Positions 5,314 through 32,000 of a stretch of 32,000 bases of DNA are shown here, piece by piece. How positions within the stretch are numbered: the first letter of the stretch is position 1; each line of letters starts with the position of its first letter. Under the pieces are notes generated by a model. The model made no database searches and was not told where the DNA came from. It saw only the letters and a list, made by a program, of their open reading frames with translations. A program made the translations under genes and the position numbers. This DNA is from Candidatus Nanoarchaeia archaeon (GTDB lineage: Archaea > Nanobdellota > Nanobdellia > Woesearchaeales > JANQNC01), in the NCBI GenBank assembly GCA_028279745.1, contig JANQNC010000001.1:600001-632000 (forward strand), read 5' to 3'.

Positions 5314-5314
5314 C

Positions 5315-7779: not shown

Positions 7780-10700
7780 TACCTTTTACCCTCGACCAAA
7801 ATCAGGTGATATCCGAATTGAGTCTTGACTGGCTGTGAAATTTCTCCCACCTCTAAGTTAAATGCTGCCTGTTCAAAAGGAGCAACCATCATACCTTTAC
7901 CGAACCAACCAAGGTCTCCTCCTCTCACTGATGAAGGCCCTTCAGAATATTCTGTTGCAAGTTCTGCAAAATTCTCTTCAGTTGCATTTTCTCTTATCTC
8001 GTTGATAAGGCTTAATGCTTCCTCTTCAGTTCGGTTGTCTAAGTTGATAAGTATGTGTCTTGCTTTTATCTCATTCTTTAACACTTCGTTATATGCTGTG
8101 CCGTCCCACTTAACCTTGTAGATGTAGATTCCTCGTGCTTTATGGAACAGTTGGAAATATTTAGAGAATCTGCCTTCAAAGAAGTAAAGGTGTGTGAAAA
8201 CTGACTCAGTCAGAGCAGGATCAGACACAAGAACTCTTTCGTTTTCCATATCGAATAGAACATCATAAGGAATTCCTGAATCGTTGTACTCTTCTTTAAG
8301 AATTCCTTCTTCAAAGAACATCGTTCCATTCTCCGCAGACACGCCATTAAACCCTATTTTAGCAAAACCTGCAGGTCTTAAAGAAGAACCGCCAACTACT
8401 GCGCCAGTATCTGAGTTTTGAGTAACTAGGTTGAATGTAGCAGACTCATTGATTATAGAGACTGAGTCAAGAACCAAATTATTAACTCCTTGTCTTCCAA
8501 GGCCAATAGATAATCTGCAATCGTAACCTTCTTGGGTCTGTGAACAACTTTTCCATCCCCCACTTATGTAAGAAGGCCAAGGACTTATCCACTGATCTGC
8601 ATTAGTATTTTTTATGTCAAAGTAAACTTTATTTGCGGTATTCTCATCTAACCCATATCTGTCTTTCAAAAGCTGTATGCCTTCACCAACTTTTAATTTT
8701 CTTACTTGGTTGTGCATCTCTGCTTTTGTGAAATTCCATGAACCAAAGTGCGCCCAAACACCTGACTTACCAATCATATCGCTTGAAACAATATAGTAAT
8801 TTTCCCAAGGCTCGCAATGTGTACTTTCGATTATAGATGAGGTTTGTTGTGATGTGAAACCTTCATCAGATAACAGCTGTGCTGCTTCATCTTCATCTAG
8901 AAGAATCAGTTGGTTAAGTATTTCTATAGATTTTACAGTATCGTTAGCTGTGAAGCTTTCTAGTTTTACTGAAGCATTATTTTGGTCACAGTTAAGCATC
9001 CTAAGTATTGCTGCAGATTCTTCTTCTGAATTAGTCAGTAATGATTTACCAACCCAATGAATCCTTTTTCCTTGGTCACCACCATCGAAAGTTACTGGTC
9101 GTTCAGCAATTGCTTTAAACCAATGACCAAAGTCCCACCAGCTTGTTATAATTGCATTGTCAACAGTTGAATCTTCCTTGATCGTTATTAAAGAACTGTA
9201 CCAACCATCATTCATACTTGGTGTTTCTGAAACTGCAACTTGATATCCTCTAACTGTAGGGAATAACACAATGAAGAAAATTATTATTACAATCAAAGAG
9301 GTCATAACCCACGAAGGCATGTCAAGTTCTTTTTTGGTCCATCTTCTAAGCGGTTCGTATATTGTTCCAATAAGAACGCCTATAGCTAAAGCGAACCCAG
9401 GAACTAAAATTGCACTAAACCTTATACTTTTGATAGCAGCATAAGTTCCTGAAACAAACCAGACTGCAAGTAAAATTGCACTAACCATGTAAAAACTCCA
9501 AAGTTTGTCTTTCTTTACAAGTTTTAGGATTGCAACAGTGAACAAAGCTACAACTCCCCCAATAGCTACAAAGAATAATAAGCCTCCCATAGAGTTCATA
9601 ACACCTGATATGCTTGAAGGATTAAGCTCTGCAACTGTCGTTAAAACGTTAGGCCATAAATTAACTTCAGCAACTGCCTTAAGATTTATGAACCATAAAG
9701 GTTTTCCTAATGCGCCAACAACACTTGTGAACCCTTCAGAGAATTTTCTTCCAGATACTAAGAAGATAAGTGAACTGAATATTGCAGTACTTAGGAATAT
9801 TGTGATCAGTCCTGATAAAGGTGTTGTTATTGAAGATAGTGATTTCTTAATGTGTTTTCTGTTCTTGATCAGTTGGATAACTAACATGGCTCCTGCAGCA
9901 GTCAGTAGGAAAACAAAGTTATACCACCAACCACTCCATAAAGAGTTGTGTAAAGCTATAATAAATCCTGAACCTGCAAACAGAGCTATCTTTTTCTTAA
10001 GATCTTTTGAAGTGTAAGCTTCTAAGAACAGCCAGATTGCCGTTACAGGAAGCAAGAAGTGATAAGCGTCAGTGTCTGCAAAACCTGCTGTAGTTCTAGT
10101 CATCAATGCAGGATGGACTGCTGCCAAAGTTGCTGAAATGAACCCTCCAACATTGCCTGCAATCTTTCTTCCCAAAAAGAAAAGAGGGATAACCCCTAAA
10201 GTACAGATCAATAACGGAGATAGGAATGCTGCCTGCATAACGGTGTAGTCTTTGTTGAATATACTCATTATTCGATATATCCAAGATTCAAATAGAGGGT
10301 GGAAGTTACCTTCTTGTTCAACCTGCCATCTTCCTTTTTTTAGGATGTCATAACTTTTTCCGTCAATCTCTATCTCTCCAATGTGGCCATTGTTAACATA
10401 GTTTAAAGCGTGTTTGTACCAAAGATAGGGATCTATAGCTAAAAGATATGTGTTGCCATTTTCATCCTGATAGAAAGACCTTAAACTATTGGCTTGGTCT
10501 TTGATGGCTTGCTCTATAGCATCACCTTGTTCAGCCTTAACCTGCTCAAATTTTTTCAAAGCTTCAGCTCGTTTTTCTGCAGCAGGAAGGAAAGGGTATT
10601 GAGATTCAATCTCAGATTCATAGCTAGATATCAAATTATTATAAAGCTGATCTCTTACTCTATCTTCAAAACCAGACAGGTAAATTGGTTGAGCTCTTAG

Positions 10701-11048
10701 AAAGATACTCAAAAATATTGGGATAAGTATCAGTAATATTAAACCAGATTTTTTGAAAAAGCTGGTTACTCCTTTAAGGTCAACAGAAACTTCTTCATCT
10801 TCAGACTTAGTTTCAACTTTATGTTCTGGTTTTTGTTCTTTGTGCTTTTTAGATTTTCCTTTGAAAATTTTCTTGAAATCTATAGTGATCTCTTCCTCAT
10901 CAGAATCAACTTTTTTATCTTCTTTATGCTTTTCGCTAGCTTCAGAATGCTTTTTATGCTCTTCAGTACTCAATGTATGACACCCCCAATATTTAGCTAA
11001 AATATCGACACTGCATTTATAAAGGTTATGATTGGCATATATAAACAA
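7779..11048 (-). CDS. aglB: Archaeal oligosaccharyltransferase AglB (STT3 family) fused to a C-terminal parvulin-type peptidyl-prolyl isomerase domain
   Basis: WWDFGHW (WWDYG catalytic motif) is encoded at 9120-9140. The first-loop [10 protein letters not shown] and GFADTDAYH acidic motifs are present, with many TM helices. The last ~99 aa (about 7782-8078) read KARHILI...[21 protein letters not shown]...[22 protein letters not shown], a PpiC/parvulin rotamase signature. The start is uncertain: ATG 11048 leaves only 35 bp to the divergent gene, and a TTG near 10970 is possible. Confidence 0.85.
7782..8078 (-). other. Parvulin (PpiC-type) PPIase domain forming the C-terminus of AglB
   Basis: See the aglB entry. 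The domain is in frame and contiguous with the STT3 C-terminal domain, with no stop between them. Confidence 0.8.
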
Positions 11049-11083: not shown

Positions 11084-11668
11084 ATGAGACGAAGAAACAA
11101 ACCAAAATTCGGATGGGTCATGCCAATGTTTATAGTAGTAATCATGGTAGGAAGCACATTTGGAATAATGCTTGGAGGGGACTCTGGAGTCAGCACATAC
11201 TATAATGATCACAAAATAAAACCTCTAGAAGAAGGTTATGAAATTAAAGCAGGCGATCTAAAGATATATTCTTCGTTTCATCCGGAACAAGTTGAAAGCA
11301 TACCTTCACCCGCAATAAATAGTTTTGATTTTATAGGGAAACAAGCAGTCATTGCATTTGATCCAGAACAAGAAAATCCAATGTATGGAGATTATGCAAG
11401 ATTCCAGCTTGGAAAATTTTTGAACAGCTTACAAATTCCAGTTGGTGCTGGAGCAACAAAAGAAGGGAATCATACACTACCTATTGTGAGTTGTGAGAAT
11501 GCAACAGAAAACACCGTAGTGATTGTCTTTAAAGAAGGAGAGATTACAAAAATAGTACAAGAAGATCTTTCATGTTATGTTCTAGAAGCAGCAACACCAC
11601 AAGATATGATAATGGTGCAGGACAGGTTTAAGTTAACACTTGCGGGCGTTATGGAAGGATCAAACTAA
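11084..11668 (+). CDS. Hypothetical membrane-anchored protein (N-terminal TM helix, extracytoplasmic domain)
   Basis: MRRRNKPKFGWVMPMFIVVIMVGSTFGIML is a basic N-terminus followed by a single TM helix. I recognised no family. It overlaps the convergent kinase gene by 9 nt. Confidence 0.6.
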   Translation: MRRRNKPKFGWVMPMFIVVIMVGSTFGIMLGGDSGVSTYYNDHKIKPLEEGYEIKAGDLKIYSSFHPEQVESIPSPAINSFDFIGKQAVIAFDPEQENPMYGDYARFQLGKFLNSLQIPVGAGATKEGNHTLPIVSCENATENTVVIVFKEGEITKIVQEDLSCYVLEAATPQDMIMVQDRFKLTLAGVMEGSN

Positions 11669-15287: not shown

Positions 15288-15339
15288 CCTAATAATAAAT
15301 AGTATAAAGCATTTTTAAATGTAATGTTTTTTGAAAAGA

Positions 15340-15347
15340 TTTAAAAA
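15340..15347 (+). promoter_or_regulatory. TATA-box-like element (TTTAAAAA) for mbf1
   Basis: Centred about 29 bp upstream of ATG 15373, in the divergent intergenic region shared with the ABC operon. Confidence 0.45.
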
Positions 15348-15372
15348 TTATCTAAAAGATACTGTCTGTAAT

Positions 15373-15831
15373 ATGAGATGCGAAATGTGCGGAAAAGAAG
15401 CAACACTAGTCCGAGCTAAAATAGAGATGGCAGAGATGGACGTATGTGAAAAGTGCGCAAAACACGGTGTTGTGTTGAGAAGACTTGATGTTCCTTCCGC
15501 TAAAAAGAAAGAAAGAAGAGAGATAAAACCACAAAAAGAGATCATAGAAGAAGTTGTGGAAGATTACGCGCAAATAGTAAGAAAAAGCAGAGAAGACAAA
15601 GGGATGAGTCAAGAAGATTTTGCAAAAAAACTAAACGAGAAAGAAAGCGTGATACACAAAATAGAAACTGGCGGCCTGATTCCAAGTTTGAAGCTGGCTA
15701 GAAAGCTAGAAAGGTTATTACACATCAGATTAATCGAGATTGTTGAAGAACATCACAATGCTGCTCCAAGTTCAAGCAAGAAAGGAAGTGAGTTGACACT
15801 TGGCGACCTAATAAAAATAAAGAAAAAATAA
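15373..15831 (+). CDS. mbf1: Archaeal multiprotein bridging factor 1 (zinc ribbon plus HTH cro/C1 domain)
   Basis: N-terminal CEMCG...CEKC zinc ribbon and C-terminal HTH MSQEDFAKKLNEKESVIHKIETG. I prefer ATG 15373 (MRCEMCG) over the track's TTG at 15331. Confidence 0.8.
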   Translation: MRCEMCGKEATLVRAKIEMAEMDVCEKCAKHGVVLRRLDVPSAKKKERREIKPQKEIIEEVVEDYAQIVRKSREDKGMSQEDFAKKLNEKESVIHKIETGGLIPSLKLARKLERLLHIRLIEIVEEHHNAAPSSSKKGSELTLGDLIKIKKK

Positions 15832-19207: not shown

Positions 19208-20533
19208 TTAATTTGAATTCACCCCCCTAACTGCCCAGATCTCATTTTTACTGTCAGAGTAAGCAAGCTTAAACTTGTCACTCTTTTTCAATAAAAATAA
19301 AAGCCCTTCTTCATCTCTACTCCAGATAAGACCTTGCTTCATATCTTCAGTTATCCAGATATACTTTATGCTATTATCTTTTAGAATGTCTAAAGTCTGG
19401 TCTAAGTTTCTATTACTGAACATATTGCTTGAAACCGACTCCATCTTGTTGTTATCATCTGAAAAAGGTTTATTGGATGTATGATATGAAATCCAGAACC
19501 CATAGCTGTGGTGAGTCAAGATTGTGTTATTATCTGAGTTCTTGTTTAGCCAATCCAGTGATTCTAGGGCTTCTTTTGATGGTTCAGAAAAGGAGGTTCT
19601 GTGTATGTAAGAAAGTGATGAAAAAAGCAAACCAAAAATAACTGCAAGCATAGTCAAAGATTTAATCAAGTCTACAATATACTTTCTTTTCATTATTGAA
19701 GAGAACGCATAAGTAGAAAAGACGATTATGAAAATGTTAACAAATATAAAAACCCAGCTTGCAAAAAATAAAGCTGTGAGTGCAAGAATAAGCAAACAAA
19801 CATACGCAGGGTATAACTTAAGCTTGTGTTTACTTGCGATAAAAATACCTATTATGAACAACAATACAGTAAATATGCTGAACCCCAACCAAGAACCTAG
19901 GTCAGTTATCACTTCTGAAAGTATCAGTGAAAATGAAGACAGGTTATTTGTTGAGGGGATTGTGAAAGATTTAACAAGTGATGCAACAATCATGAAGATT
20001 ATCGAAGGAATTAAAATCTTTGAAAGCTTTCTATTGTAAAAAATAAGTGAAATTAGACATATTAAAATTATCAGGGTTTCTAAAGTTCCAAATAACGAAG
20101 AGGTTATGAGCAATAAAACAGACATGATGTTTAGCAGTTTGTTTTTTGATTGCAGCAACAATGTAGAAAGTAAAAACAAGAATAAAAGCATAGAGTGCGG
20201 TGTTGGAAATACTACACAATAAATCAATGCAGGGGATATTGCGAAAAATAAAGATGCAAGTAGTGAAAACTTAACATTTGCCTTGAACTTGATGAGTAAA
20301 CGGTAAAATATTATAACTGATAAGAATGTGAATATGAACGATAAGATGAAGGGGTTGATGAGTTGTGTTAAGAAAATGAAGGGGTTGTTAATATTGTAAA
20401 TGAGATGATAATAAGGATCTGAACCAGGGAACGACCCTTTAAAGATAATCGTTCTAATCATAACAGGGAATAACAAGATTATGAGTGAGATGGGTGTTAG
20501 TGCAAGTAATGCTTTTGAATTAGTCCACTTCAT
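19208..20533 (-). CDS. STT3/AglB-like GT-C membrane protein with a degenerate WWDYG motif (paralog A)
   Basis: The first-loop GSDPYYHLIYNI matches the AglB DPYYH motif. The C-terminal EALESLDWLNKNSDNNTILTHHSYGFWISYHTSNKP aligns with the AglB segment [19 protein letters not shown], but reads HHSYG where AglB has WWDFG. ATG 20533 forms an ATGA overlap with the upstream stop. The track used GTG at 20542. Confidence 0.55.
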   Translation of the reverse strand: MKWTNSKALLALTPISLIILLFPVMIRTIIFKGSFPGSDPYYHLIYNINNPFIFLTQLINPFILSFIFTFLSVIIFYRLLIKFKANVKFSLLASLFFAISPALIYCVVFPTPHSMLLFLFLLSTLLLQSKNKLLNIMSVLLLITSSLFGTLETLIILICLISLIFYNRKLSKILIPSIIFMIVASLVKSFTIPSTNNLSSFSLILSEVITDLGSWLGFSIFTVLLFIIGIFIASKHKLKLYPAYVCLLILALTALFFASWVFIFVNIFIIVFSTYAFSSIMKRKYIVDLIKSLTMLAVIFGLLFSSLSYIHRTSFSEPSKEALESLDWLNKNSDNNTILTHHSYGFWISYHTSNKPFSDDNNKMESVSSNMFSNRNLDQTLDILKDNSIKYIWITEDMKQGLIWSRDEEGLLFLLKKSDKFKLAYSDSKNEIWAVRGVNSN

Positions 20534-21981
20534 CCATAACACCCCACTTCGTAAATTAACACATTCTTATTGTAAACTTTTTCAAAACATTCAGAGTTAA
20601 GGTAATCTGGAGGCGTATCTTCCAGATATATGTAATCCACATCGTACTTAGCCAATAAATCTAAAGCTATTGTTTGGAACTTAGCATTGTATACTGTGTT
20701 GACATCATCTAATCTTATTTCTGCATCAGGTATGTTTAAAAAATTAGTATCAATAACATTTTTTCTATCTGCAATTGACGTGATAAGATGGCCTTTATGC
20801 ACATCAGCCAGAACTGTTGTGTTTTCTTCTGTGTTTTCACTTATCCATTCTAGCGCTTCAATAGTATCATCAGAAACAGAACTCTTAATGTTAAGATCCG
20901 AATAAACAAAAGATGGAATAACTGAATTGAATACAAAAATTATGAATATCAATATAGCAAATAAAGGGATCCTATTTGAAAACTTAGTCTTTGCAACATA
21001 TTTGAAAATAAAATTAAGACAAGGGCTTAATAATACTACTAGCGTGACTCCTAAAAATACTGCACCCAGTTCTGGTGTGAGCAGTTTGAAAAATAAAAGA
21101 AGGAAAATAGTTATTGCTAAAGATGTAAAAATGTAAACAGGTCTGCTTTTTTCCACAAAAAAGTATCTATATACTGAGTAAACTCCGCAAACAAAAGGGA
21201 TAATACCAATAAGAAGCATCAACTCTATCACATTTGCTGATGTGAAATACTGATTCAGGAGTAATTCAGGAATGTTTCTCCAGATTATTGATGCTCCACT
21301 TGCAAGGAACGCATCCTTGAAGAAAATGATGTATGCCCAAACAGATATGAAAATGAAGAACAGTATCGATTCTAATCTTGCTTCCTCAATCTTGACATCT
21401 TCAACTTTCGCCAGTATAAGATATATCCCTAAAGCTAAAGCAAGAATAGATGCAACAGGACTTATTAGTGCTAAGATAAAACAACCTATAACAAAAAAAG
21501 TTGAGTGCTTATTTATTTCTAAAAGCAGATAGACAAGCAAGAAGAAAAAAGGGATTAAGAGTGAAAGGGTTGAAACTTTGTTAATTGTTTCGGTGAGGTA
21601 GATTGGGATAAAAATAGATACAAAAGATGTGAAAAGAGATATGTTTTTGCTGTTCGTAATCCTTTTTGATAAAAGAAAAATTACTAAGACTAAGCTTGAA
21701 GCCAGGATGTTTGGAATTATCTTTCCAACTAACGTTATCGGCAAGAAAAGATTAAAGATGGCTAACAAGTAGTGGAATATAGGTAGGAACGATAAAGTCC
21801 TTCCCCCATAGCTCAAAGGGTCATCGTACAATGGGATAAAGTTTTCTTTTATGTTTTCTACCTGTCTTAAGTTAAAGTAAGCTTCATCCCCTGTGAATGA
21901 AGGAGTTTGGAAAGCAAAAAATAACCTAAAAGACAGAGCTATAACGAAGAAAAGAATCAACCATTTATACTCGGATTTCAT
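20530..21981 (-). CDS. STT3/AglB-like GT-C membrane protein with a degenerate WWDYG motif (paralog B)
   Basis: The N-terminal FTGDEAYFNLRQVENIKENFIPLYDDPLSYGGRTLSFLPIFHYLLAIF follows the AglB first-loop pattern. The C-terminal IEALEWISENTEENTTVLADVHKGHLITSIADRKNVIDTNF aligns with the WWDYG region but reads DVHKG. The C-terminal domain is clearly homologous to paralog A (LLAKYDVDYIYLEDT versus ILKDNSIKYIWITEDM). Confidence 0.55.
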   Translation of the reverse strand: MKSEYKWLILFFVIALSFRLFFAFQTPSFTGDEAYFNLRQVENIKENFIPLYDDPLSYGGRTLSFLPIFHYLLAIFNLFLPITLVGKIIPNILASSLVLVIFLLSKRITNSKNISLFTSFVSIFIPIYLTETINKVSTLSLLIPFFFLLVYLLLEINKHSTFFVIGCFILALISPVASILALALGIYLILAKVEDVKIEEARLESILFFIFISVWAYIIFFKDAFLASGASIIWRNIPELLLNQYFTSANVIELMLLIGIIPFVCGVYSVYRYFFVEKSRPVYIFTSLAITIFLLLFFKLLTPELGAVFLGVTLVVLLSPCLNFIFKYVAKTKFSNRIPLFAILIFIIFVFNSVIPSFVYSDLNIKSSVSDDTIEALEWISENTEENTTVLADVHKGHLITSIADRKNVIDTNFLNIPDAEIRLDDVNTVYNAKFQTIALDLLAKYDVDYIYLEDTPPDYLNSECFEKVYNKNVLIYEVGCYG

Positions 21982-22808: not shown

Positions 22809-23708
22809 TTATTTTGTTTTCGAATAACTGTTCTCGGATGTAATGTCTCTCCCCTTGTCTACGTGAGGTGTGAATTTGATATCAATCCATTTAGACTTAA
22901 CATTAATGGAACCATCAGGCATGTGTTTCACATAAGAATCTTTAGGAACGAACTGATTATCAAGATGGAATACTCCCCCTGTTGAATCTAAATACTGCTT
23001 CATATCATCAGTGAATTTATAACGAGTAACACCATGTTCAGAACAAATACCTGAACTGAAATCAACGCTGGAGTCTGCCTTCCTAACACGATTTAAGTTG
23101 ATTATTCCAGAAACCATGTCAACAACAGATACCCTTGCAGTATGTTTGCCTTTGAAAATAGAATGCATAACTTCAGAAGTCTCTTTTTGAGAATTATCAT
23201 GGTATGCCTCTCTAGCTTTTGTTTCAGGCATTTTAGATGCCTCCTGTTCAAATACCTCAGGATCGCAATGAATATGCCAACCTTCAACCCTTTTATTGCC
23301 CTTAGCTAACTTTGCCAGATAGTCTCTATCCACTAACACTTCAGCTCTTATAAAACTAGAGTGGTTGTACAATTTTTCACGATATCCAGTTTCATGCCAT
23401 TCTTTTTTGTCAGGCAAGTAGACCCAGTTTTCTTCAAGAGGCTGATTTAATAAAGTACGCATGTCTTGTATCCCTTCATCCATGCCTTTATTAACAACCT
23501 GCCGCGTTTTATTTTCAGTGTTTAACGCCAGCTTATCTACTAATTCATTATCACGTTTTGGGATTCTATACTCATAATATTTTATATAATTGTAAAGTTC
23601 TTTATGGGGAATTGGAACATTAGGAAATAACTTTTCTACTGCCATTGAGGCTCCAAAGTAATAAGATGCCACAACCCATGTCCAAAATAATTTCTTTTTG
23701 AATCCCAT
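22809..23708 (-). CDS. Hypothetical membrane-anchored protein of unknown function (299 aa)
   Basis: The N-terminal MGFKKKLFWTWVVASYYFGASMAV is a signal anchor. The rest is hydrophilic and His/Asp/Glu-rich (for example VEGWHIHCDPEVF). I place the start at ATG 23708, one nt after the stop of the upstream RHH gene. The track start at 23738 would overlap that gene. Confidence 0.55.
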   Translation of the reverse strand: MGFKKKLFWTWVVASYYFGASMAVEKLFPNVPIPHKELYNYIKYYEYRIPKRDNELVDKLALNTENKTRQVVNKGMDEGIQDMRTLLNQPLEENWVYLPDKKEWHETGYREKLYNHSSFIRAEVLVDRDYLAKLAKGNKRVEGWHIHCDPEVFEQEASKMPETKAREAYHDNSQKETSEVMHSIFKGKHTARVSVVDMVSGIINLNRVRKADSSVDFSSGICSEHGVTRYKFTDDMKQYLDSTGGVFHLDNQFVPKDSYVKHMPDGSINVKSKWIDIKFTPHVDKGRDITSENSYSKTK

Positions 23709-23709
23709 A

Positions 23710-23841
23710 TTATACTCCCAAAATCTCATTAACTGCAAATTCGATAGCGTGAGATTTATTTCTAAATACTCCTTTGCTGACTTGCTCTTTAATTCTAAAA
23801 AGGGTTTCAGTATCTATTGAAACGCATATTTTTTCCTTCAT
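23710..23841 (-). CDS. Ribbon-helix-helix (CopG/Arc/MetJ-type) DNA-binding protein, 43 aa; not in the supplied ORF track
   Basis: Hand translation gives MKEKICVSIDTETLFRIKEQVSKGVFRNKSHAIEFAVNEILGV. The pattern is a beta-strand (ICVSID), helix (ETLFRIKEQV), G-x turn, then helix (NKSHAIEFAVNEIL), as expected for an RHH fold. The stop TAA at 23712-23710 lies 1 nt from the ATG of the next gene. Confidence 0.6.
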   Translation of the reverse strand: MKEKICVSIDTETLFRIKEQVSKGVFRNKSHAIEFAVNEILGV

Positions 23842-23900: not shown

Positions 23901-23938
23901 AGTAACATATAACTAGTTACTGCTGTTTATTACGTAAT
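23901..23938. repeat. Inverted repeat AGTAAC-N9-GTTACT (23901-23921) followed by the perfect 10-bp palindrome ATTACGTAAT (23929-23938)
   Basis: Read directly from the sequence in the divergent intergenic region. Function unknown; it could be an operator or a hairpin. Confidence 0.4.
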
Positions 23939-24139
23939 TCTATTCCCATTTAGGCACCAGATGTGTACCTATTATGTAGGTATTTTTACTTACAATTTGA
24001 GTTATTTTACTTACTAATTAAGTATATTTACTTATTTTGTAGGTTTTTTACCTACTTAGTAGGTTTAATTACTTACATAGTAGGACAAATACTTACATGG
24101 TAAGTCTTTTTTACTTACATAGTAAGTACAATAGAAAGT

Positions 24140-24147
24140 TTTATAAA
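24140..24147 (+). promoter_or_regulatory. TATA-box-like element (TTTATAAA), distal candidate promoter of the HTH/surface-protein operon
   Basis: It lies in the only 42-bp gap of the iteron array, 7 bp upstream of iteron 9. Confidence 0.35.
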
Positions 24148-24171
24148 GGATTAAACTTACAATGTAAGTTA

Positions 24172-24179
24172 TTATAAAT
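24172..24179 (+). promoter_or_regulatory. TATA-box-like element (TTATAAAT), proximal candidate promoter of the HTH/surface-protein operon
   Basis: It lies 8 bp upstream of iteron 10 and about 35 bp upstream of ATG 24211. Confidence 0.4.
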
Positions 24180-24210
24180 AAATAACAACTTACATAGTGA
24201 GTATTAAAAC

Positions 24211-24429
24211 ATGATGGATGAGTATGGGAACGAAATAGAGACTTCTAAAATATTTATACCTATCTCGATCTTCGAAGATAGAAGACTTTCTGCATTAGAA
24301 TCAATCGTTGAATATCTCAAAGAAAAAAGACATCTAACACTACACCAAATTGGAGTCATGCTCAACAGAGATGACAGAACAATCTGGACAACATACAACA
24401 GAGCAAAACAGAAGAGGAAGAAAAGATGA
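24211..24429 (+). CDS. Small helix-turn-helix DNA-binding protein (sigma-70 region 4/LuxR-like HTH), 72 aa
   Basis: LSALESIVEYLKEKRHLTLHQIGVMLNRDDRTIWTTYNRAKQKRKKR has the pattern helix, then HTH (LTLHQIGVMLNRDDRTIWT), then a basic tail. Its TGA overlaps the ATG of the next gene (ATGA at 24426-24429). Confidence 0.6.
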   Translation: MMDEYGNEIETSKIFIPISIFEDRRLSALESIVEYLKEKRHLTLHQIGVMLNRDDRTIWTTYNRAKQKRKKR

Positions 24430-26822
24430 AACATCACATAAATAACGCAGTCGCACTAATGTCGGTCATCCTAATACTTACAAGTTCAGTCTTAGTATAC
24501 AATAGTGCAGAAAACATGCTAACAGGCTATTCAATCTATGATCCTGATGCAGAAATCTGCCACCAAAATATTGATTCATGTATTGACTTAGATGGAGATG
24601 GAATGGTCGGATCCGGAAGTAATGACGAAACAATATTCTCCTGTTTAATTGATGAAAATGGACTGGGTTGTCCTGCAAACGATGCTGAATGGATTACTTT
24701 ATTTGGAAACAGCAAAGAAAACTTCACAATACTAGCAGACTTTGACAATGATGGAGGAGTTAGCCAGTTAATAGACTTCCAAAGATGTTACGTGACAATG
24801 AGAGACAGAGCGATAGATGAAGGCACTTCCTATAATGTAACATGTAACCTACCACAAGACGCAGTTAATGATGAAGTCTGCAGGTTTGGATGTCCAGACC
24901 TAAACGGAGATGGATTTGTAGACAAGTATGACTTAGCAATCTTAACCTCAGACTCAGTATGGAAAAATGATAGTTTCAACCAAACATATCCTATGGCAGA
25001 CATGACAAATGATTCTGTTGTAGATTGGGCAGATAGAAACTGTATGAGCCTGTACTCAAATGAGTATGCACTATGCAACTTACCAAGACACTTCGAACAT
25101 GAAAATGTGTATGTGTGTCCTGACTTAGAAAATATTACAACAGACTTAGACAATGATGGATTTGTAGGAGTGAATGATAAAGCGTTGTTTGACTCTTACT
25201 TCGATGATGGTTTGTCAGTTGTTGACTTCACAGGAGAAGGAGACATCAACTGGAAAGACAGATGGGTCTTTGATGAATATTACAACTACAAAGCAGGAAG
25301 CGAATTCAATCAAAGCGTATTGAAAGTTGTAGGATGTAATTTGTACCATGCAGCATGGCACACAGGAGGGTTGGATCAGAACATTTCATGGGGGTTCACA
25401 GGAAGTGGAGGAATGCCGCAATCGATAAACTTCACCGTATTCGACAGTCCTGCAGATAATTTCGACTCGATGGGCACAACATATGGATGGCTAACAAAAG
25501 CAAGAATAAGAATAGAAGGAAACCCTGCAAATACCAAACCAATAAATGTAACGCTAATAGAACCTTCAACAGGCAAGACATTAGCAAGAACAGAAATACC
25601 TCCATTCGGAGATACAAGATGGGCTACAGCATACTTTGCATTACCACCTTACACAAATCCAAGACTAACCAATGGAAGTAATTACACTTTGGTCCTTGAT
25701 AGTCCTGTAACTGAGTTCTATGAAATACAAGGAGGACACAACTTCCAGACCTGGATGACAACAGCACATGGAGACTTGAATGGAGATGGAATAGTTGATA
25801 GTTTAGATGATCTAATCATATCTGCAATAAACGATAATCTGCAGTTTAATGGGACAAGTAACTGGAGTTCAGATTACGATCTTAATAACGATTCAATAAT
25901 AGACAATCTAGATCTGCAAATATTTGTTGATGCTGTTGGAAGCCCACCAATATCTTCACAATCAACAATAAGTGTAGGAAGCTATTCACAAACTTTGCTG
26001 AATGGAGGAGGAATAATTCCAAACGGAGGCTTTAGTACATCTAACGGCACGGGTTGGCCACACAAATGGGTGGATAACCAACCAGATGTGGATGTTCCAA
26101 CTGACATAAGTGTTGTTTCAGGAGAACTAAACATAACTGTAAACAATAACACAGGCAGTTTTACAGGTGTAAGAAGTAAAAAACTAAAACTAAAACCAAA
26201 CACAAAATACAACGTAACTGCAAAAATAAAAATCCCAACCTCGATAACACAATTAGATGGAACTTGGGAGCTACACCGACATGCACACAATGGGTTCTGT
26301 TCAGGAACGCCCGCTTGTCACGATTACACCTTATTAGGCGGGGACTACAGCTGGGATAATAGTACTTCTAGAGGGGTATGGCACGACAAATGGTGGACAA
26401 TTGAAACCGGCGAGAATGTCAAAATAGGCTATGTGTTTGTTATAACAGATGTAAATGGTGGAAACGGAACAATACTTGTTGATGATGTAAGCCTCCACGA
26501 AGTTCCAGGATACGAATGGTTCGGCGGAGCTATAAAACTAAGACAGAAGTTTACAGCAAACACAGACTCACCAATAAAAGTTGTTCAGCTAAATCTTGCG
26601 ATGGATAAAGGAAATGATGATGACATCACTGTCAAGATCCTAGATGAAACGTTCACCCCAGTAGGAAGCACAGTAATACCTGCACTACACAACAGTACAC
26701 CAACAATCTACAACGCAACGTTCACTCCTGCAGTTGCAGTTACACAAGACCTAGATTATTACATTGAAGTAAGTTCGCCAGGAGAATATACAGATTACAG
26801 ATGGTTCGCAAACTATGACTAA
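24426..26822 (+). CDS. Secreted or membrane-anchored surface protein with dockerin-like calcium-binding repeats and a CBM4/9-like jelly-roll domain
   Basis: N-terminal hydrophobic anchor or signal (AVALMSVILILTSSVLV). There are eight D-x-[DN]-x-D-G-type loops: DLDGDGMVG, DFDNDGGVSQLIDF, DLNGDGFVDKYDLAIL, DMTNDSVVDWADRN, DLDNDGFVGVNDKALF, DFTGEGDINWKDRW, DLNGDGIVDSLDDLIISAI and DLNNDSIIDNLDLQIFVDAV. The segment NGGFSTSNGTGWPHKW...GTILVDDVSLHEV resembles a CBM_4_9 domain. I counted roughly two dozen N-X-S/T sequons by hand. Confidence 0.7.
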   Translation: MKHHINNAVALMSVILILTSSVLVYNSAENMLTGYSIYDPDAEICHQNIDSCIDLDGDGMVGSGSNDETIFSCLIDENGLGCPANDAEWITLFGNSKENFTILADFDNDGGVSQLIDFQRCYVTMRDRAIDEGTSYNVTCNLPQDAVNDEVCRFGCPDLNGDGFVDKYDLAILTSDSVWKNDSFNQTYPMADMTNDSVVDWADRNCMSLYSNEYALCNLPRHFEHENVYVCPDLENITTDLDNDGFVGVNDKALFDSYFDDGLSVVDFTGEGDINWKDRWVFDEYYNYKAGSEFNQSVLKVVGCNLYHAAWHTGGLDQNISWGFTGSGGMPQSINFTVFDSPADNFDSMGTTYGWLTKARIRIEGNPANTKPINVTLIEPSTGKTLARTEIPPFGDTRWATAYFALPPYTNPRLTNGSNYTLVLDSPVTEFYEIQGGHNFQTWMTTAHGDLNGDGIVDSLDDLIISAINDNLQFNGTSNWSSDYDLNNDSIIDNLDLQIFVDAVGSPPISSQSTISVGSYSQTLLNGGGIIPNGGFSTSNGTGWPHKWVDNQPDVDVPTDISVVSGELNITVNNNTGSFTGVRSKKLKLKPNTKYNVTAKIKIPTSITQLDGTWELHRHAHNGFCSGTPACHDYTLLGGDYSWDNSTSRGVWHDKWWTIETGENVKIGYVFVITDVNGGNGTILVDDVSLHEVPGYEWFGGAIKLRQKFTANTDSPIKVVQLNLAMDKGNDDDITVKILDETFTPVGSTVIPALHNSTPTIYNATFTPAVAVTQDLDYYIEVSSPGEYTDYRWFANYD

Positions 26823-29800
26823 AAAAACACAAAATAAAAACATGTTGATGCTTTTGATAGTTGCAACACTATTTGCAATAACCTCTGTAGATGCTGTCCT
26901 AAACTGTACTTCGACAGATCCTTGTGAAATTCCTTTTACAGGCGGACACCCACCAGGATTCCCCGCGCCACTAGAAAATTTACAATGTGGAGAGACGTTC
27001 TATTATGAATTTGAACTTCCAAGAAACCATAACTGCCAAGCCACAGTAATATTTGATGTGACTGATGGAGCAAACACCTCAAATAAAATAACATTCGGAG
27101 GCGATGATTTATTACAGAACTGTCAGAGAGTAATAACTTCAGCAGACTCACAACAATGTGAAAACGTAAACATAAATGTGCCCATGGGAATAGATGAACT
27201 ATTCACAGTAACTGCAAGCAGACCTGTAGAAGGGACTGAATGTAATAGCAGTGTAGAGATAGATTACACCTTAGCATATTATGCAACCTGCGCAACTACA
27301 AAAGACGGGTGGGGAAAGAATGGAAGTTTTGTAAACACAACTGGTGGAGAATTTTATTTTGAAACACTAATAGGTGAGGGTGGTAACTTCTCAGGACTGT
27401 CTATCTTTGATGTTAACAGCGATAATGTAATAAATGATACAGACTACTATGACATACTTTCAAGAGATGGTGAGCGAGACGGAACATTCTGGACCCCACT
27501 TATAGACTTTAACGCACAGTTTGGGGTATATGAAGTACTGCTTGATTATACGCTGGGATTCAGAGCATACTTAGGAAAAATAGTAAATGGAGCGATGCCA
27601 ATAAGGTGGTTTATAACACAGGAAAATGATGGACGATGCTCATACGATGAAGATAACACAAGCACAGACTGCCACTATTGTAACAACGATGGGTTCTGCG
27701 CAATAAACGAATATGAATACTTAGGAGAATCATGCCAAGACTGTAACGGGACATTCCCACTAGAACCACAGATGACAGAGTTTGATTCTTGTAGCGAAAC
27801 AACAGACATGGCAGACGTATTAGATATAGAACACGCAGAAAACTTCACAATAGAAGGAGAAGAACCAGGATGTAATGACGGAAACATCATGTTCACTCAA
27901 GAAATTAATCTAACAAATTCAGGATCAGGATACATACCATTAGACATTAACACTTCAATAGACATAATTGACAATTACATAAGCGTAAATACAATAGAAG
28001 CACCACAGTTAGAGAAAGAAGCACAGCTGACAATCTACAACAGAACATGGTGCCACCCAGGAATATTAAAGAATGGTGCAGAATGTGTTGATTGTCCAGT
28101 ACAAGAGTATGGAGATAAAATAAAATCATTAAACGCAACAGGAATAGCTGATGCAGACTTACTAACTAATGTAACAGGGCAAAGCTTTACACTAGAACTA
28201 CAAGCAGAAAACTACACATTTGGGAAATTAACACAAAATAATGTTTACACACAGCAACAAGTCGGACAGGATAGCCCAATAAGTGTTGAGATAGTATCGG
28301 GGGCATTAACAACCAACGCAAGAATAAATATAACAGGAATAAACAAAATAATCTACCTGCCAAAGATGAACTTGGGAGGAGGACCATCTAAAGTTTATGT
28401 TGCAGAAGATGGAAGCACTTACACAGGTGCGGCACTTACAACAATATCAAAATCTGCAGCAGATCCAATAAAAGTAACTTCACTTAGTGCAGTGAACACT
28501 TCAGGACCTCATGGAAAATCATTCTTCTGGTTCTATGCAGGAGAAACACCTACACTATTCGCAACAATAAATAATGATGGGATCTTCAATGCGACAGGCA
28601 CAACAACAGTTCCAACACAGGTAAAAATTGTGTATACTGCAGAGTATCCTGTTAATATCACTCTAGACGGACACCATCTATTCCTACCTTCAACATTCCC
28701 CATATCTAATGCTGCATATCCTGCAACAAACAACATAACATACAAAGAAAGAGATTTAGTGAATGTTAAAAGAACTCCTGAAAAAGATCTAAGCATAGTA
28801 GATAAAGATCCAACTAACTTAACATTTACAGTTCCAGCATTCGGATCAGAACTAATAACAGTATACGAATCAGAAGACCTAGTCCCAAGCTACAGTAACT
28901 TCAACGGAAGCACAACAAACTTCTGTTATGCAAAAGATGAAACGACAACACGAGAACTATCAATATTTAGAGCAGTCATTGAAGATACATCAAATGCAAA
29001 ACTAGGATTAGTAAGTTATGCAAACTTTACAAAACTAGACCTTAATAATGAAATCATCATGGGTGGAAGCAACAAGACAAAAATAATCTGGATAAACGGA
29101 AGCACAAGCGATGAGTTTGAAGGAAAAGCTGCAATAATAACATTCCACAGAATGGATATAGTGCACCCACAAATAATGGGAACTGTAACAAATGTAGTTC
29201 CAATAAGACATTACGTGCCTCCAGGAGAAACACTATCAGAATTCATATTCTATGCGGAACTAACTGGTAGTTCACCAATAAACATAACAATAGTAGACGC
29301 AGATAATCCAACAGAATTCCTAAGTGATATAGATAATATCACAATAAGAAATGGAACACAAGAAGTAAGAATTAATGTAAGTGATCACTTCAGTGATGAC
29401 GATGTTAATGTGACTGACTTAGAGTATGGGGTTGCGAACCAAACAGGAAGCATCAAAGTAACATTTGAGAAAGCAGCAAACGTAGTGACAGCAATAATAA
29501 GACCATTAACAAGGTTCTTCAATCCGTTCAGTTTCCAGTTCTTCGTTTATGAACCTGGAGTAATTGATGGAGAGTCTGCATTCTCTAATTTCCTATTTGG
29601 AAACATACTGCCAGACAGACCACCAATACAAACACAAACAATACTAGACATAGTGTTCAATGAAGATGAAAACGGAACAATAGACTTATCTGACTACTTC
29701 GAAGATCCTGACAACCATCCATTACATTATACTTGGACACCGATAGATGCTGGCGGAAATATAACAATACACAAACAAGGAATGGCACAAAGCTTATGGT

Positions 29801-32000
29801 GGAACATAACTAATGCAACTTACACAGGGAATAACAGCATGACATTCCTACAAGAAGTTATTGCATTAGTTCAAACAAATACAACCGAACTACTTGCATC
29901 TCCAGGAACTTACGGATACATAGTGGCAGCAGGTTATGCAGACCAGACAGCTGAAGAAGGAACAGACCTACTTAGAATAAACTTCTGGAACACAACAGGA
30001 AATGGAATGTCATTCCCAGAAGGAAACATAAGCATAACATATGACAACGGAAAAGATCTGAAGATATACATACCTGAAGTTACCTATACTGATAGGAATA
30101 ACTTCTCACTATTCGTATCAAAAGACGGATCAACATACTATGATGAAGGACTAACACAGATTGCAAAAGTCTCACCTAACCCTATAGTTGTTCCTAGCTT
30201 AGTAATAGAACCAGATAGTGATTGGCACGGCAAGAGAACAATAGTCTTCATAGCAAACGACACAATACACAAGAAAACAAGCAACAACGTAGACATAATT
30301 GTTCATAACCTAAACGATGCACCAAGGAAACACAAAGACATTGATGATATAGTAATGCTAGAGGGAACTGTTGAGTTTGTTGTAAATGTAACACCCGACT
30401 ACTTATTCGATATAGACATACCTACAGACACCGAGTTTGAAGCAGATGATGAACTAACATTAACATATTCAAAACAGGGCGGCGGTGATGCTGAGTTTAT
30501 CAACTTAACATTCAGCAATAACGGAGTTTATAGCGTTACAGAAGATAAACCAGTTAATATAACAGTTAAAGCACTGGATTTCCCATACTGGAACGGGTAT
30601 GAAGCACTAACAGTAAAAGCAACAGACTCATACGGTAAGAGTGTTGAGACAAACTTCACAGTATACATAATAGAAGTACCAACAGATCTTAACAGAACAA
30701 TACTTCCAGCATACATCCCAATGGTTGAAGATGAAACTTATCCATTTGAACTGAACAACAACTGGTTTGTGGATGTGGAAGGAGATGCAACCTACAGATA
30801 CTTCGGATTAAATTCAACAAACATAACAATAGAACTGAATATCGATAGTGGAAATGGAACAATCAGAGCAGATCCAGACTGGTTTGGTGTAGCTGTAGTT
30901 AATTTCTCAGCATCAGACGCGACAAGCAACGTATCAGATATGTTTGTGATAAATGTAACACCAGTAAATGACGCGCCAAGATTATATGGAGACATAGAAG
31001 TAAAACCATGGCCAAAAGATGAAAGTTATCTGGTTAATTTATCAGACCACTTCTACGAAGCATACGGAGAAGACACAAACAGTCTAGTGTTCTCAGACAT
31101 AGACATAATACCAACACTAAGCACAACCTATCATGAACTAATCGCAAACAGCTATACTAGTGAGACTGCAAACATGACCCCTGACACAGGATGGTACGGA
31201 TCAGGATGGATAACCTTCTGCGCAGACGATGGTCAGTATCAGACGTGCAGCAACATAGTAAGACTAAACATAACATCTGACAAACCGCCACAGTTAATAT
31301 CACCATTCAATAGTCCGGAAATATGGCCAGAAGATAATGTTAACTACATCAACCTAGAAGAACACTTCTGGGATGAAGAATTAGGAAGTGAGTTAGATTT
31401 CACACCATCACTAATAGGACCATTTGATGGATTCAACATAACACCATACGGGGAGTTGATTAACAGTAATGTATTACTTAACTTAAGCAACGTAAGAAAA
31501 GCAGCATACAACTTAACACTGGGAGGAGGATTCACATTCATAGCAGCAGACAACAGTGGAAGATACTTAACAACCGCATATGGAACAAACGGAACACAGA
31601 CACCAATCTTCCTATTAAGCCCACTACAACACAATGCAAAACCAATCAAGATATACAAGACAAGCATGAAAGATCCAAGCTTTGAACTACCTGAAGAGAC
31701 TTATAATTTAACAGGAAACGCAAACATTAGTGTAAGTTACACAGCTTATGAAGGAGATAAGTCAAGGAGAGTAGAAAGAAACATCGGAACAGGAATAACA
31801 GGAATAACAACAATAGATCCTATACCTGTAGTCAGTAACCAACAGTACACAGTATCAGCAGTAATAACAACAGAGAACATAAGAGATCCTGGTGAGTCTG
31901 TAACAGTGGCAATAGAATGTGATGGCATAGCAACTGAAGTAGCAATACCAGGAATGACAACACAAAAACAAGGACTGACAGATTGGGAGGATTGGGACAC
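26815..32000 (+). CDS. Giant secreted surface protein/adhesin, 5' part only (more than 1,700 codons, open at the window end); Cys-rich N-terminal region plus cadherin-like/tandem-95-like repeats with VNDAP motifs
   Basis: I translated frame +1 by hand from ATG 26815 to 32000 and found no stop. The N-terminus MTKKTQNKNMLMLLIVATLFAITSVDA looks like a signal peptide; an alternative ATG lies at 26842. Repeat ends IIVHNLNDAPRKHKDIDD and INVTPVNDAPRLYGDIEV, plus repeat starts such as PDRPPIQTQTILDIVFNEDENGTIDLSDYFEDPDNHPLHY, match large bacterial and archaeal adhesin repeats. The start overlaps the stop of the preceding gene by 8 nt. The ORF is absent from the track because it has no in-window stop. 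Confidence 0.8.
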   Translation, partial: MTKKTQNKNMLMLLIVATLFAITSVDAVLNCTSTDPCEIPFTGGHPPGFPAPLENLQCGETFYYEFELPRNHNCQATVIFDVTDGANTSNKITFGGDDLLQNCQRVITSADSQQCENVNINVPMGIDELFTVTASRPVEGTECNSSVEIDYTLAYYATCATTKDGWGKNGSFVNTTGGEFYFETLIGEGGNFSGLSIFDVNSDNVINDTDYYDILSRDGERDGTFWTPLIDFNAQFGVYEVLLDYTLGFRAYLGKIVNGAMPIRWFITQENDGRCSYDEDNTSTDCHYCNNDGFCAINEYEYLGESCQDCNGTFPLEPQMTEFDSCSETTDMADVLDIEHAENFTIEGEEPGCNDGNIMFTQEINLTNSGSGYIPLDINTSIDIIDNYISVNTIEAPQLEKEAQLTIYNRTWCHPGILKNGAECVDCPVQEYGDKIKSLNATGIADADLLTNVTGQSFTLELQAENYTFGKLTQNNVYTQQQVGQDSPISVEIVSGALTTNARINITGINKIIYLPKMNLGGGPSKVYVAEDGSTYTGAALTTISKSAADPIKVTSLSAVNTSGPHGKSFFWFYAGETPTLFATINNDGIFNATGTTTVPTQVKIVYTAEYPVNITLDGHHLFLPSTFPISNAAYPATNNITYKERDLVNVKRTPEKDLSIVDKDPTNLTFTVPAFGSELITVYESEDLVPSYSNFNGSTTNFCYAKDETTTRELSIFRAVIEDTSNAKLGLVSYANFTKLDLNNEIIMGGSNKTKIIWINGSTSDEFEGKAAIITFHRMDIVHPQIMGTVTNVVPIRHYVPPGETLSEFIFYAELTGSSPINITIVDADNPTEFLSDIDNITIRNGTQEVRINVSDHFSDDDVNVTDLEYGVANQTGSIKVTFEKAANVVTAIIRPLTRFFNPFSFQFFVYEPGVIDGESAFSNFLFGNILPDRPPIQTQTILDIVFNEDENGTIDLSDYFEDPDNHPLHYTWTPIDAGGNITIHKQGMAQSLWWNITNATYTGNNSMTFLQEVIALVQTNTTELLASPGTYGYIVAAGYADQTAEEGTDLLRINFWNTTGNGMSFPEGNISITYDNGKDLKIYIPEVTYTDRNNFSLFVSKDGSTYYDEGLTQIAKVSPNPIVVPSLVIEPDSDWHGKRTIVFIANDTIHKKTSNNVDIIVHNLNDAPRKHKDIDDIVMLEGTVEFVVNVTPDYLFDIDIPTDTEFEADDELTLTYSKQGGGDAEFINLTFSNNGVYSVTEDKPVNITVKALDFPYWNGYEALTVKATDSYGKSVETNFTVYIIEVPTDLNRTILPAYIPMVEDETYPFELNNNWFVDVEGDATYRYFGLNSTNITIELNIDSGNGTIRADPDWFGVAVVNFSASDATSNVSDMFVINVTPVNDAPRLYGDIEVKPWPKDESYLVNLSDHFYEAYGEDTNSLVFSDIDIIPTLSTTYHELIANSYTSETANMTPDTGWYGSGWITFCADDGQYQTCSNIVRLNITSDKPPQLISPFNSPEIWPEDNVNYINLEEHFWDEELGSELDFTPSLIGPFDGFNITPYGELINSNVLLNLSNVRKAAYNLTLGGGFTFIAADNSGRYLTTAYGTNGTQTPIFLLSPLQHNAKPIKIYKTSMKDPSFELPEETYNLTGNANISVSYTAYEGDKSRRVERNIGTGITGITTIDPIPVVSNQQYTVSAVITTENIRDPGESVTVAIECDGIATEVAIPGMTTQKQGLTDWEDWD

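Follow-up and report, generated by a model that had tools for sequence, protein, structure and literature searches.

The 32,000-nt window analysed here (positions 600,001 to 632,000 of contig JANQNC010000001.1 of a Candidatus Nanoarchaeia archaeon) ends in three overlapping plus-strand open reading frames (ORFs) that stand behind an array of palindromes. All coordinates are positions within this window, and ORF3 is readable only to 32000. ORF1 (24211–24429) encodes a 72-aa helix-turn-helix (HTH) protein of the sigma-70-region-4/LuxR-like kind, presumed to be an operator-binding autoregulator; ORF2 (24426–26822) encodes a 798-aa signal-anchored surface protein with dockerin modules; and the 5′ part of ORF3 (26815–32000) comprises 1,728 codons and is still open at the window end. 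A first-pass annotation, made from the letters alone, took the source for a small AT-rich archaeon, in agreement with the 1.30-Mb contig, its GC content of ~35% and the RadB and AglB that it encodes. We propose that the three genes and the palindromes form a self-contained, self-regulating expression cassette for costly, fast-evolving giant surface proteins, a reading to which we give a probability of roughly two-thirds. A regulator-plus-palindrome cassette for giant surface proteins is widespread in DPANN archaea.

Three overlapping genes and their probable single transcript

Both overlaps proposed in the first-pass annotation were read in the sequence. ORF1 and ORF2 share 4 nt, the ATGA at 24426–24429, and ORF2 and ORF3 share 8 nt (ATGACTAA), with the ATG of ORF3 at 26815 and the stop codon TAA of ORF2 at 26820–26822. 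The third ORF, said to run for more than 1,700 codons while being absent from the ORF track, was indeed free of stops for 1,728 codons from the ATG at 26815; the program that made the track skips ORFs running off the source end, and this is the sole cause of the omission. A 4-nt ATGA overlap is commonplace in prokaryotic operons, and the one between ORF1 and ORF2 carries weight because it is kept in relatives.

The three genes are probably co-transcribed as one mRNA. A run of five or more T residues is the usual archaeal termination signal, and a single transcript is likely because no such run occurs on the sense strand across the 7.8-kb operon, where dinucleotide shuffles predict 4.3 (7 of 500 shuffles were as low). 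Synonymous-codon shuffles of ORF3 gave an expectation of 3.4 runs, with 4 of 500 as low as observed, and the remaining genes of the window carry 4.4 runs per kb.

Operator array and promoter

The unusually elaborate operator array that had been noticed ahead of ORF1 proved to be genuine. Palindromes were searched with the pattern TACTTACWWWGTARG at ≤2 mismatches; 17 strand-matches were found, all within 23966–24203, as compared with 1.5 expected, and 0 of 100 shuffles reached 17. The strand-matches resolve to ten 17-bp palindromes with the consensus TACTTAC-N3-GTAAGTA, whose start-to-start spacings are 21, 21, 21, 20, 21, 20, 22, 42 and 33 bp. Eight of them constitute an upstream array at 23966–24128 (starts at 23966, 23987, 24008, 24029, 24049, 24070, 24090 and 24112) that is phased at 20–22 bp, or two helical turns. 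Next comes, as read from the sequence, a plus-strand element resembling a TFB-recognition element (BRE) and TATA box, AGAAAG-TTTTATAAA (24133–24147, TATA box at 24140–24147). The promoter-proximal palindrome AACTTACAATGTAAGTT (24154–24170) lies 7 nt 3′ of the TATA box, and the second proximal palindrome AACTTACATAGTGAGTA (24187–24203) ends 8 nt before the ATG of ORF1. Archaeal transcription usually begins ~24 nt after the TATA box, which would put the start near 24170; the palindrome at 24154–24170 would then span from about −17 to the start site, that is, the polymerase-recruitment region.

This layout is conserved. The array was found upstream of the orthologous gene in the related loci L001, L003 and L005 and in the more distant L006, L009, L010 and L021. 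A GAAAG(A/T)TTTATAAA block occupies the same position in L001, L003, L005, L006 and L009; the TATA-proximal palindrome position is filled in these five and in L010, and the palindrome nearest the ATG (24187–24203) is conserved in L001, L003 and L005.

On the other side of the array, a 43-aa ribbon-helix-helix (RHH)-like ORF (23710–23841, minus strand) overlaps a 309-aa ORF whose product has an N-terminal hydrophobic segment and no family matches, and both diverge from the array (22809–23841). This slot holds a pair of PIN and 55-aa ORFs in L003 and is empty in L005; because its content differs in this way, it appears to be a variable islet, possibly toxin–antitoxin-like. A separate inverted repeat, AGTAAC-N9-GTTACT, at 23901–23921 may be the RHH protein's own operator. 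Because the RHH and 309-aa genes are absent from L005 and L003 has the PIN pair instead, we assigned the array to the HTH operon and not to the RHH gene.

The presumed regulator protein

The 72-aa protein had been taken to be DNA-binding, and its predicted structure bears this out as far as the fold is concerned. An AlphaFold2 (AF2) model built on the family alignment is a confident three-helix HTH (predicted local distance difference test score, pLDDT, 87.5) with helices at residues 28–38, 44–51 and 55–70. Foldseek searches with this model retrieved region 4 of SigR, SigW, SigE and SigD together with RcsB at probabilities of 0.96–1.0; the root-mean-square deviations were 0.8–1.2 Å across ~45 aa, the matches include DNA-bound SigW and SigE (−35 DNA), and those to RcsB share 29–33% identity. 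Given how short the domain is, the Foldseek E-values are weak. The sharply conserved family consensus reads IPxSIFxDRxLSVLExxVEYLKEKxxLxYHEIAxLLNRDDRTIWTVYxRAKKKR, and the NRDDRTIWTxY segment corresponds to residues 52–62 of ORF1, reaching into the start of the last helix. P0062, a family member with four HTH copies, scores above threshold with two Pfam models, Sigma70_r4_2 (47.7 vs 25.7 bits) and HTH_38 (45.9 vs 27 bits). The sigma-2 (region 2) domain is missing from ORF1, whose 72 aa hold one HTH domain only, and the protein is therefore not a sigma factor. The sole annotation that we found for the family is the generic NCBI name "sigma factor-like helix-turn-helix DNA-binding protein".

Conservation in close relatives

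The synteny of HTH gene, dockerin-protein gene and giant ORF recurs in four metagenomic contigs, each with the array, the 72-aa gene, the dockerin protein and the giant in this order. In L003 and L005, the operon has radB upstream and rps2 downstream. ORF1 shares 88% identity with its L001 orthologue and ORF2 and ORF3 share 45–46% with theirs, suggesting that the regulator is conserved and the exposed cargo fast-evolving. The HTH homologues of L006 and L009 (~60–65% identity) overlap by ATGA with ORFs of at least 1,845 and of 2,907 aa, respectively, and these genes also lie behind the same palindromes and the TATA-proximal site. In L003, the ORF2 orthologue (3669–5577) is split into ORFs of 264 and 309 aa, as could result from pseudogene formation, misassembly or a true rearrangement; a run of N is present at 3054–3063 in the upstream PIN-pair region of the same locus.

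A cassette shared across a family

The arrangement had been called unfamiliar. It is apparently undescribed, but it is not a one-off and recurs across DPANN archaea. An exhaustive profile search put the size of the HTH family at 2,226 cluster representatives, and proteins with two or four tandem HTH domains are numerous among them. Scanning the GTDB species genomes with the family gave 222 confirmed copies; the best 80 of these 222 loci are titled Woesearchaeota, Nanoarchaeota or Nanoarchaeia, with some labelled "uncultured Methanosarcinales" or "archaeon" (those labels are unconfirmed).

Giant genes lie preferentially downstream of the HTH gene. Flanks were cut at 10 kb, by which many downstream ORFs were clipped, so that the counts of large ORFs are lower bounds; the upstream control accepts either strand and is inflated by neighbouring cassettes. 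With at least 6 kb of flank available for 55 HTH copies downstream and 66 upstream, a co-directional ORF of ≥1,000 aa followed at least 39 of the 55, compared with 16 of the 66 controls. The corresponding numbers were at least 32 vs 7 for ORFs of ≥1,500 aa and at least 25 vs 3 for those of ≥2,000 aa. In 38 HTH copies the gene overlaps the next ORF by 4 nt (−4). In the DPANN loci, the HTH gene typically stands ahead of ORFs of 1,000 to >3,300 aa with varied extracellular domains. Their products form a heterogeneous cargo in which LamG, beta-helix/NosD, subtilase, Ig-like, cadherin-like and DUF285 domains were recognised, but mostly no known domain; they are generally rich in N-glycosylation sequons and have an N-terminal membrane segment.

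The palindrome travels with the HTH gene as well. In a sample of 1.25 Mb from 85 loci, 203 of 252 palindrome matches were concentrated immediately ahead of HTH genes, in regions making up 6.7% of the sequence, a density of 2.43 per kb vs 0.042 per kb elsewhere (58-fold enrichment). Family-wide, the palindrome spacing peaks at 20–22 and 41–43 bp, and in 47 cases a TATA-like 8-mer is followed 5–8 nt later by a palindrome, an arrangement also seen by eye in L010 and L021. HTH gene and palindrome occur together across the 85 loci with a fixed geometry to the TATA box, which lends autoregulation indirect support, and the palindrome recurs at multiple HTH genes, sometimes twice per contig.

These distributions bear on a quite different account of the array, in which it would serve as an origin/iteron-like element, mark a mobile-element site or be bound by the divergent RHH protein (23710–23841, minus). 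The array is AT-rich, highly repetitive and located at a gene-orientation switch, and the RHH gene diverges from it. However, it accompanies the HTH gene where the RHH gene is absent (L005 and L001), and neither the concentration of matches directly upstream of HTH genes, nor the several HTH copies per contig, nor the fixed TATA geometry fits such an element. An origin is further disfavoured by the multi-copy motif and by the lack of Orc1/Cdc6 among the scanned window ORFs. A viral or mobile origin of the HTH family was rejected, there being no IMG/VR member and no PHROGs match, which speaks against a mobile-element site too. We regard this whole account as highly improbable.

In a full-text literature search, whose coverage was incomplete, and in a preprint check, we found no description of the HTH family, the palindrome or the link to giant genes. 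The family is apparently new, and so is a system dedicated to giants, with its fusion forms (see below), while the theme of its mechanism, an autoregulated operon with operator arrays, is a familiar one.

Two further features of the relatives were seen. In L047, L060, L062, L081 and L083, giant genes stand in tandem, two or three to a cluster (1,300 to >3,200 aa each, all on the same strand) and an HTH gene between them, implying that some genomes devote tens of kb to such cassettes. In L021, a putative tRNA-like gene (9640–9712, minus strand) lies ~150 nt upstream of the palindrome/TATA units.

Predicted mode of regulation

In the self-regulating cassette that we propose, ORF1 would be the leading cistron of a single long ORF1–ORF2–ORF3 message, with its translation coupled to that of the next gene. 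An ORF1 dimer would bind the 17-bp palindrome, in which two 7-bp half-sites flank a 3-bp spacer (7-3-7) and the half-site centres lie one helical turn apart, and a dimer sitting between the TATA box and the start would keep the polymerase from being recruited. Regulator and giants would come from one message, so that the level of the regulator would follow the output of the operon and hold it down by negative feedback. Dimers may load cooperatively on the eight upstream sites, whose phasing places them on one face of the DNA, and this upstream array could sharpen the response or could activate at low occupancy. Family proteins with two HTH domains would cover one site, and those with four would cover two adjacent sites.

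The same layout can be read with the opposite sign. If the HTH protein acted chiefly in activation or in promoter specificity, dimers bound to the array would recruit or stabilise TBP/TFB at a weak promoter in a positive autoregulation, and this could yield bistable, phase-variable expression of the giant operon. Eight of the ten sites are indeed upstream of the BRE/TATA, where the archaeal activators Ptr2, SurR and TrmBL1 bind, and in L021 each of three palindromes is preceded by its own TATA-like box; the sigma-region-4-like fold and the first-cistron position, which gives feed-forward production, would also suit an activator. However, the most constant feature of the family is the palindrome 5–8 nt downstream of the TATA box, and in characterised archaeal systems a site just downstream of TATA is repressive. 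To our knowledge, moreover, archaeal RNA polymerase makes no use of sigma factors. Activation as the main role is a serious alternative, though we consider it rather unlikely, and autorepression is the sign that we prefer for the cassette.

The dockerin-bearing protein

ORF2 bears dockerin modules, as the first-pass annotation had claimed. The Dockerin_1 model matches two stretches at 23.1 bits, just above its cut-off of 22.9 bits, and the ORF2 orthologues clear this cut-off by a wide margin (P0054, 61.8 bits, E = 7e-17; P0055, 54.2 bits, E = 1.7e-14). Eight DxDxDG-type Ca loops occur in dockerin-like pairs whose members are 34–35 residues apart, and a dockerin in the PDB matched aa 447–505 at E = 0.01. 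The N-terminus is a hydrophobic anchor with nearly no cytoplasmic segment. A label that did not hold is "CBM-like": CBM_4_9_1 appeared at E = 0.079 only and DUF4082 stayed below its cut-off, with the beta-sandwich regions that weakly match DUF4082 at aa 705–788 in ORF2 and aa 341–460 in P0054. The AF2 model of ORF2 (mean pLDDT 41, from a three-sequence alignment) is confident only for the C-terminal beta domain.

Assembly through dockerin-type interactions, also suggested earlier, found no support, as no Cohesin match was obtained in ORF3 (E ≤ 1) or its full-length homologues (E ≤ 0.1). The homologues examined for Cohesin were P0049, P0050 and the L005 giant, and the negative result comes from sequence searches only, divergent cohesin-like folds not having been searched structurally. 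BLAST detected neither internal repeats within ORF2 or ORF3 nor similarity between the two. Like the non-cellulosomal dockerin proteins of archaea and bacteria, ORF2 and its orthologues have type-I duplicated Ca-binding segments, whereas the ORF2 operon offers no cohesin partner, in the operon or in the homologues of the giant, and no glycoside hydrolase context.

Residues ~8–38 of ORF2 (24447–24539) form a hydrophobic helix followed by NMLTGYSIYD. Many HTH-linked surface proteins (L009–L088) likewise have an N-terminal hydrophobic helix with an (I/L)TG(F/L/Y)(A/S)V-type motif, of which ITGFAV, LTGFAV and ITGLAT are variants, and this TG-type motif may be a lineage-specific processing or sorting signal.

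The giant surface protein

The description of ORF3 as a giant adhesin-like surface protein agrees with its homologues of 1,606–2,954 aa, their signal peptide and C-terminal transmembrane (TM) helix, and matches to cadherin-like and Big_9 families. The signal-peptide-like N-terminus MTKKTQNKNMLMLLIVATLFAITSVDA and the Cys-rich head were found as announced, with 19 of 23 Cys within residues 1–460, and NDAP motifs occur at residues 1167 and 1385 (and SDKP at 1488). Each of the three homologues (2,954, 2,646 and 1,606 aa) has a signal peptide and a single TM helix ~135–215 residues from the C-terminus, and ORF3 is read as a type-I membrane protein too. Its residues 107–1727 align colinearly with 219/222–1841 of the 2,954-aa homologue (46% identity); because of this colinearity we estimate its full length at ~2,800–2,900 aa, and the window probably holds the N-terminal ~60%. 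No relative of the last 499 aa of ORF3 was found in the genome-collection scan, and a PDB sequence search with ORF3 gave no matches.

A tandem-95 repeat model, one of the checks proposed in the first-pass annotation, fell short of its threshold: NF012211 scored 41.2 bits vs the 90-bit cut-off on the window-contained part of ORF3, with the signal in two stretches, aa 1318–1389 and nearby. Outside its own clade, ORF3 matched only tandem-95 proteins of Rhodobacterales. It resembles the tandem-95/cadherin-like adhesins (NF012211; Cadherin_5, Big_9) over a short stretch only, in its ~95–100-aa repeats ending in VNDAP. It differs from them in that only 2–3 repeats are recognisable, below the cut-off, with most of the protein matchless, and in the archaeal type-I anchor and cytoplasmic helical-repeat tail that its homologues possess.

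Glycosylation context

The surface assignment of both large proteins is in line with their composition and neighbourhood. ORF2 has 23 sequons (2.9 per 100 aa) and ORF3 has 62 (3.6 per 100 aa), as compared with 0–1.2 per 100 aa in the other 20 window proteins. Both thus combine an N-terminal hydrophobic segment with sequon enrichment in a genome that encodes the AglB pathway, and we infer that they are N-glycosylated surface proteins. The ~22 kb to the left of the operon form a glycosylation island with AglB/STT3, GT4, GT2 and PMT_2-type enzymes and an ABC-2 exporter.

This neighbourhood also raises the question of whether ORF2 and ORF3 could be ordinary S-layer-type envelope proteins, in which case the cassette would merely control envelope synthesis. 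Their sequon richness next to an N-glycosylation island and the conserved chromosomal site between radB and rps2 would both be natural for envelope genes. Profile searches with ORF2 and ORF3, however, gave no S-layer family match, and the repeats belong to a type known from adhesins (cadherin-like/tandem-95); the very heterogeneous cargo and the several cassettes per contig do not fit a single structural envelope protein. We consider this improbable and keep to giant surface proteins of an adhesin-like kind as the cargo.

Within the island, nearly all large ORFs at 447–21981 are on the minus strand, with small plus-strand exceptions at 11084–11668 and 15331–15831. Its content includes three GT4 enzymes, a methyltransferase, three GT2 enzymes, three PMT_2/GT22-like membrane enzymes and the ABC-2 exporter. 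The AglB/STT3 oligosaccharyltransferase (7779–11048, minus strand, 1,089 aa) ends in a PPIC-type peptidyl-prolyl isomerase (rotamase) domain (aa 990–1088), an unusual fusion of glycosylation and folding functions. Two proteins with 9–10 TM segments (19208–21981) have no family matches and are kept beside radB in L005.

Cytoplasmic tails and fusion proteins

Some giants of the family carry the HTH themselves. Among the top 150 of the 2,226 cluster representatives, at least 11 proteins of 1,252–5,919 aa have HTH repeats near the C-terminus, and in the six that were read, four HTH copies come right after a hydrophobic segment and a polybasic stretch. These six (P0063, P0068, P0078, P0083, P0086 and P0171) begin with a cytoplasmic coiled-coil/SHOCT-like segment, a TM segment and a huge extracellular part; the hydrophobic segment near their end is the second one, and the four HTH copies are alternating ones of the ORF1 family.

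The cytoplasmic tails of P0049, P0050 and the L005 giant (L005:11793–16610) are of another make, with two or three ~55-aa helical repeats of the consensus LEKSIxSVxxHGFTxEDVKxxLxxKGWPxxxVDEA ("HGFT...KGW"), which matches Pfam RecX_HTH1. It is because of this match that JGI lists the 2,954-aa surface protein, misleadingly, as "SOS response regulatory protein OraA/RecX". We considered whether the tail repeats are degenerate HTH domains of the ORF1 family and rejected this (hhalign probability 0.2%); as a general trait of HTH-linked giants, the tail repeat was likewise rejected, with only two weak extra matches in the 80 loci.

These observations touch the possibility that the HTH protein is physically coupled to the cytoplasmic tail of the giant, either sequestered by it or fused to it, so that the state of the surface protein sets the level of free regulator. 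Folding, export or host contact of the giant would then be sensed in the manner of an extracytoplasmic function (ECF) sigma/anti-sigma pair or a membrane-tethered transcription factor. The giants with C-terminal HTH repeats exist, the full-length ORF3 homologues place a helical-repeat tail of ~170–190 aa behind their C-terminal TM helix, and the gene order, with a small sigma-4-like gene running into that of a membrane protein, resembles the ECF operons. On the other hand, no kinship between the tail repeats and the HTH was detectable, just two further ORFs among the 80 loci have the tail repeat, and ORF2, the gene that overlaps ORF1, has almost no cytoplasmic segment. Coupling, though plausible, is unlikely in our view, and we favour a freely acting autoregulator for the operon in the window.

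A wider version of this idea, that the mini-HTH and the giant protein form a DPANN-specific surface-to-genome signalling device in which four HTH domains are fused to the tail or, as in the window, the HTH is a free first cistron, is speculative and doubtful. If it were true, the state of the giant adhesin, as altered by host contact for instance, could decide whether the regulator is retained at the membrane or set free. Several cassettes sharing one operator would then allow cross-regulation and a switch-like or mutually exclusive expression of giant proteins, and surface variation would be achieved without DNA rearrangement.

Discussion

Several points weigh against a self-repressing cassette for adhesin-like giants. 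The binding of ORF1 to the palindrome, the transcript structure and the start site are all predictions from the sequence; repression is deduced from operator position only, and the eight sites upstream of the BRE/TATA would equally fit activation. The best Pfam score of ORF1 is below threshold (HTH_11, 15.4 vs 25 bits, E = 0.018). Low sense-strand T content mostly accounts for the depletion of T-runs, and 32 of 93 upstream regions in relatives have no canonical palindrome at ≤2 mismatches. A test of covariation between recognition helix and operator was uninformative, the loci having been chosen on that helix motif. Finally, the label "adhesin" depends on weak tandem-95, Big_9 and cadherin-like repeat matches.

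Comparison with characterised systems helps to place the cassette. The archaeal repressors MDR1, LrpA, Phr and the SurR/TrmB family bind between the TATA box and the start on their own operon, and some regulators of these types are dual, their effect depending on whether the site lies up- or downstream of TATA. The cassette shares with them the operator just downstream of TATA, but its regulator is of another fold and family, and it has up to 8–12 sites phased at ~21 bp and is dedicated to giants. In bacterial-type ECF sigma/anti-sigma operons, as in the window, a small protein with a region-4 fold comes first and overlaps by ATGA the gene of a membrane protein whose extracytoplasmic part is large, and the promoter there is self-regulated, as we infer for the ORF1 operon; ORF1 differs in having no sigma-2 domain, in sites that are phased palindromes and not a −35 element, and in partners that are giants and not anti-sigma factors. 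The LuxR/GerE-type domains of RcsB and NarL belong to the same HTH fold class, and LuxR-types bind inverted repeats as dimers. ORF1, however, has no receiver or ligand domain, stands alone as 72 aa or occurs in 2–4 tandem copies in its relatives, and has its own conserved archaeal signature, IPxSIFxDRxLSxLE...NRDDRTIWT.

As for the cargo, the giant surface proteins of other DPANN archaea and ultra-small symbionts, such as the SPEARE proteins of Nanohaloarchaeum antarcticus, are very large, secreted or anchored, fast-evolving proteins that are thought to mediate host contact. The giants of the cassette are like them in size, predicted surface location, fast evolution and the setting of a small-genome episymbiont, a likeness of kind and not a demonstrated relationship in sequence. 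Our literature search found no dedicated regulator/operator cassette for SPEARE-type giants. DPANN archaea, most of which are uncultured, are believed to be attached to hosts, with their giant surface proteins as leading candidates for this contact; an attachment role for the giants described here is plausible.

The control of giant surface-protein genes in DPANN archaea is nearly unstudied because the organisms are mostly uncultured. The cassette offers a defined unit, a 72-aa protein and a 17-bp operator in a fixed promoter geometry, and the small size of its parts (the protein and ~250 bp of DNA) makes it a simple in vitro system for archaeal control by phased operator arrays. The fusion proteins give a concrete hypothesis of signalling from the surface to the chromosome. 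Together, the HTH gene and its palindromes provide a sequence handle with which host-interaction genes may be found in new genomes.

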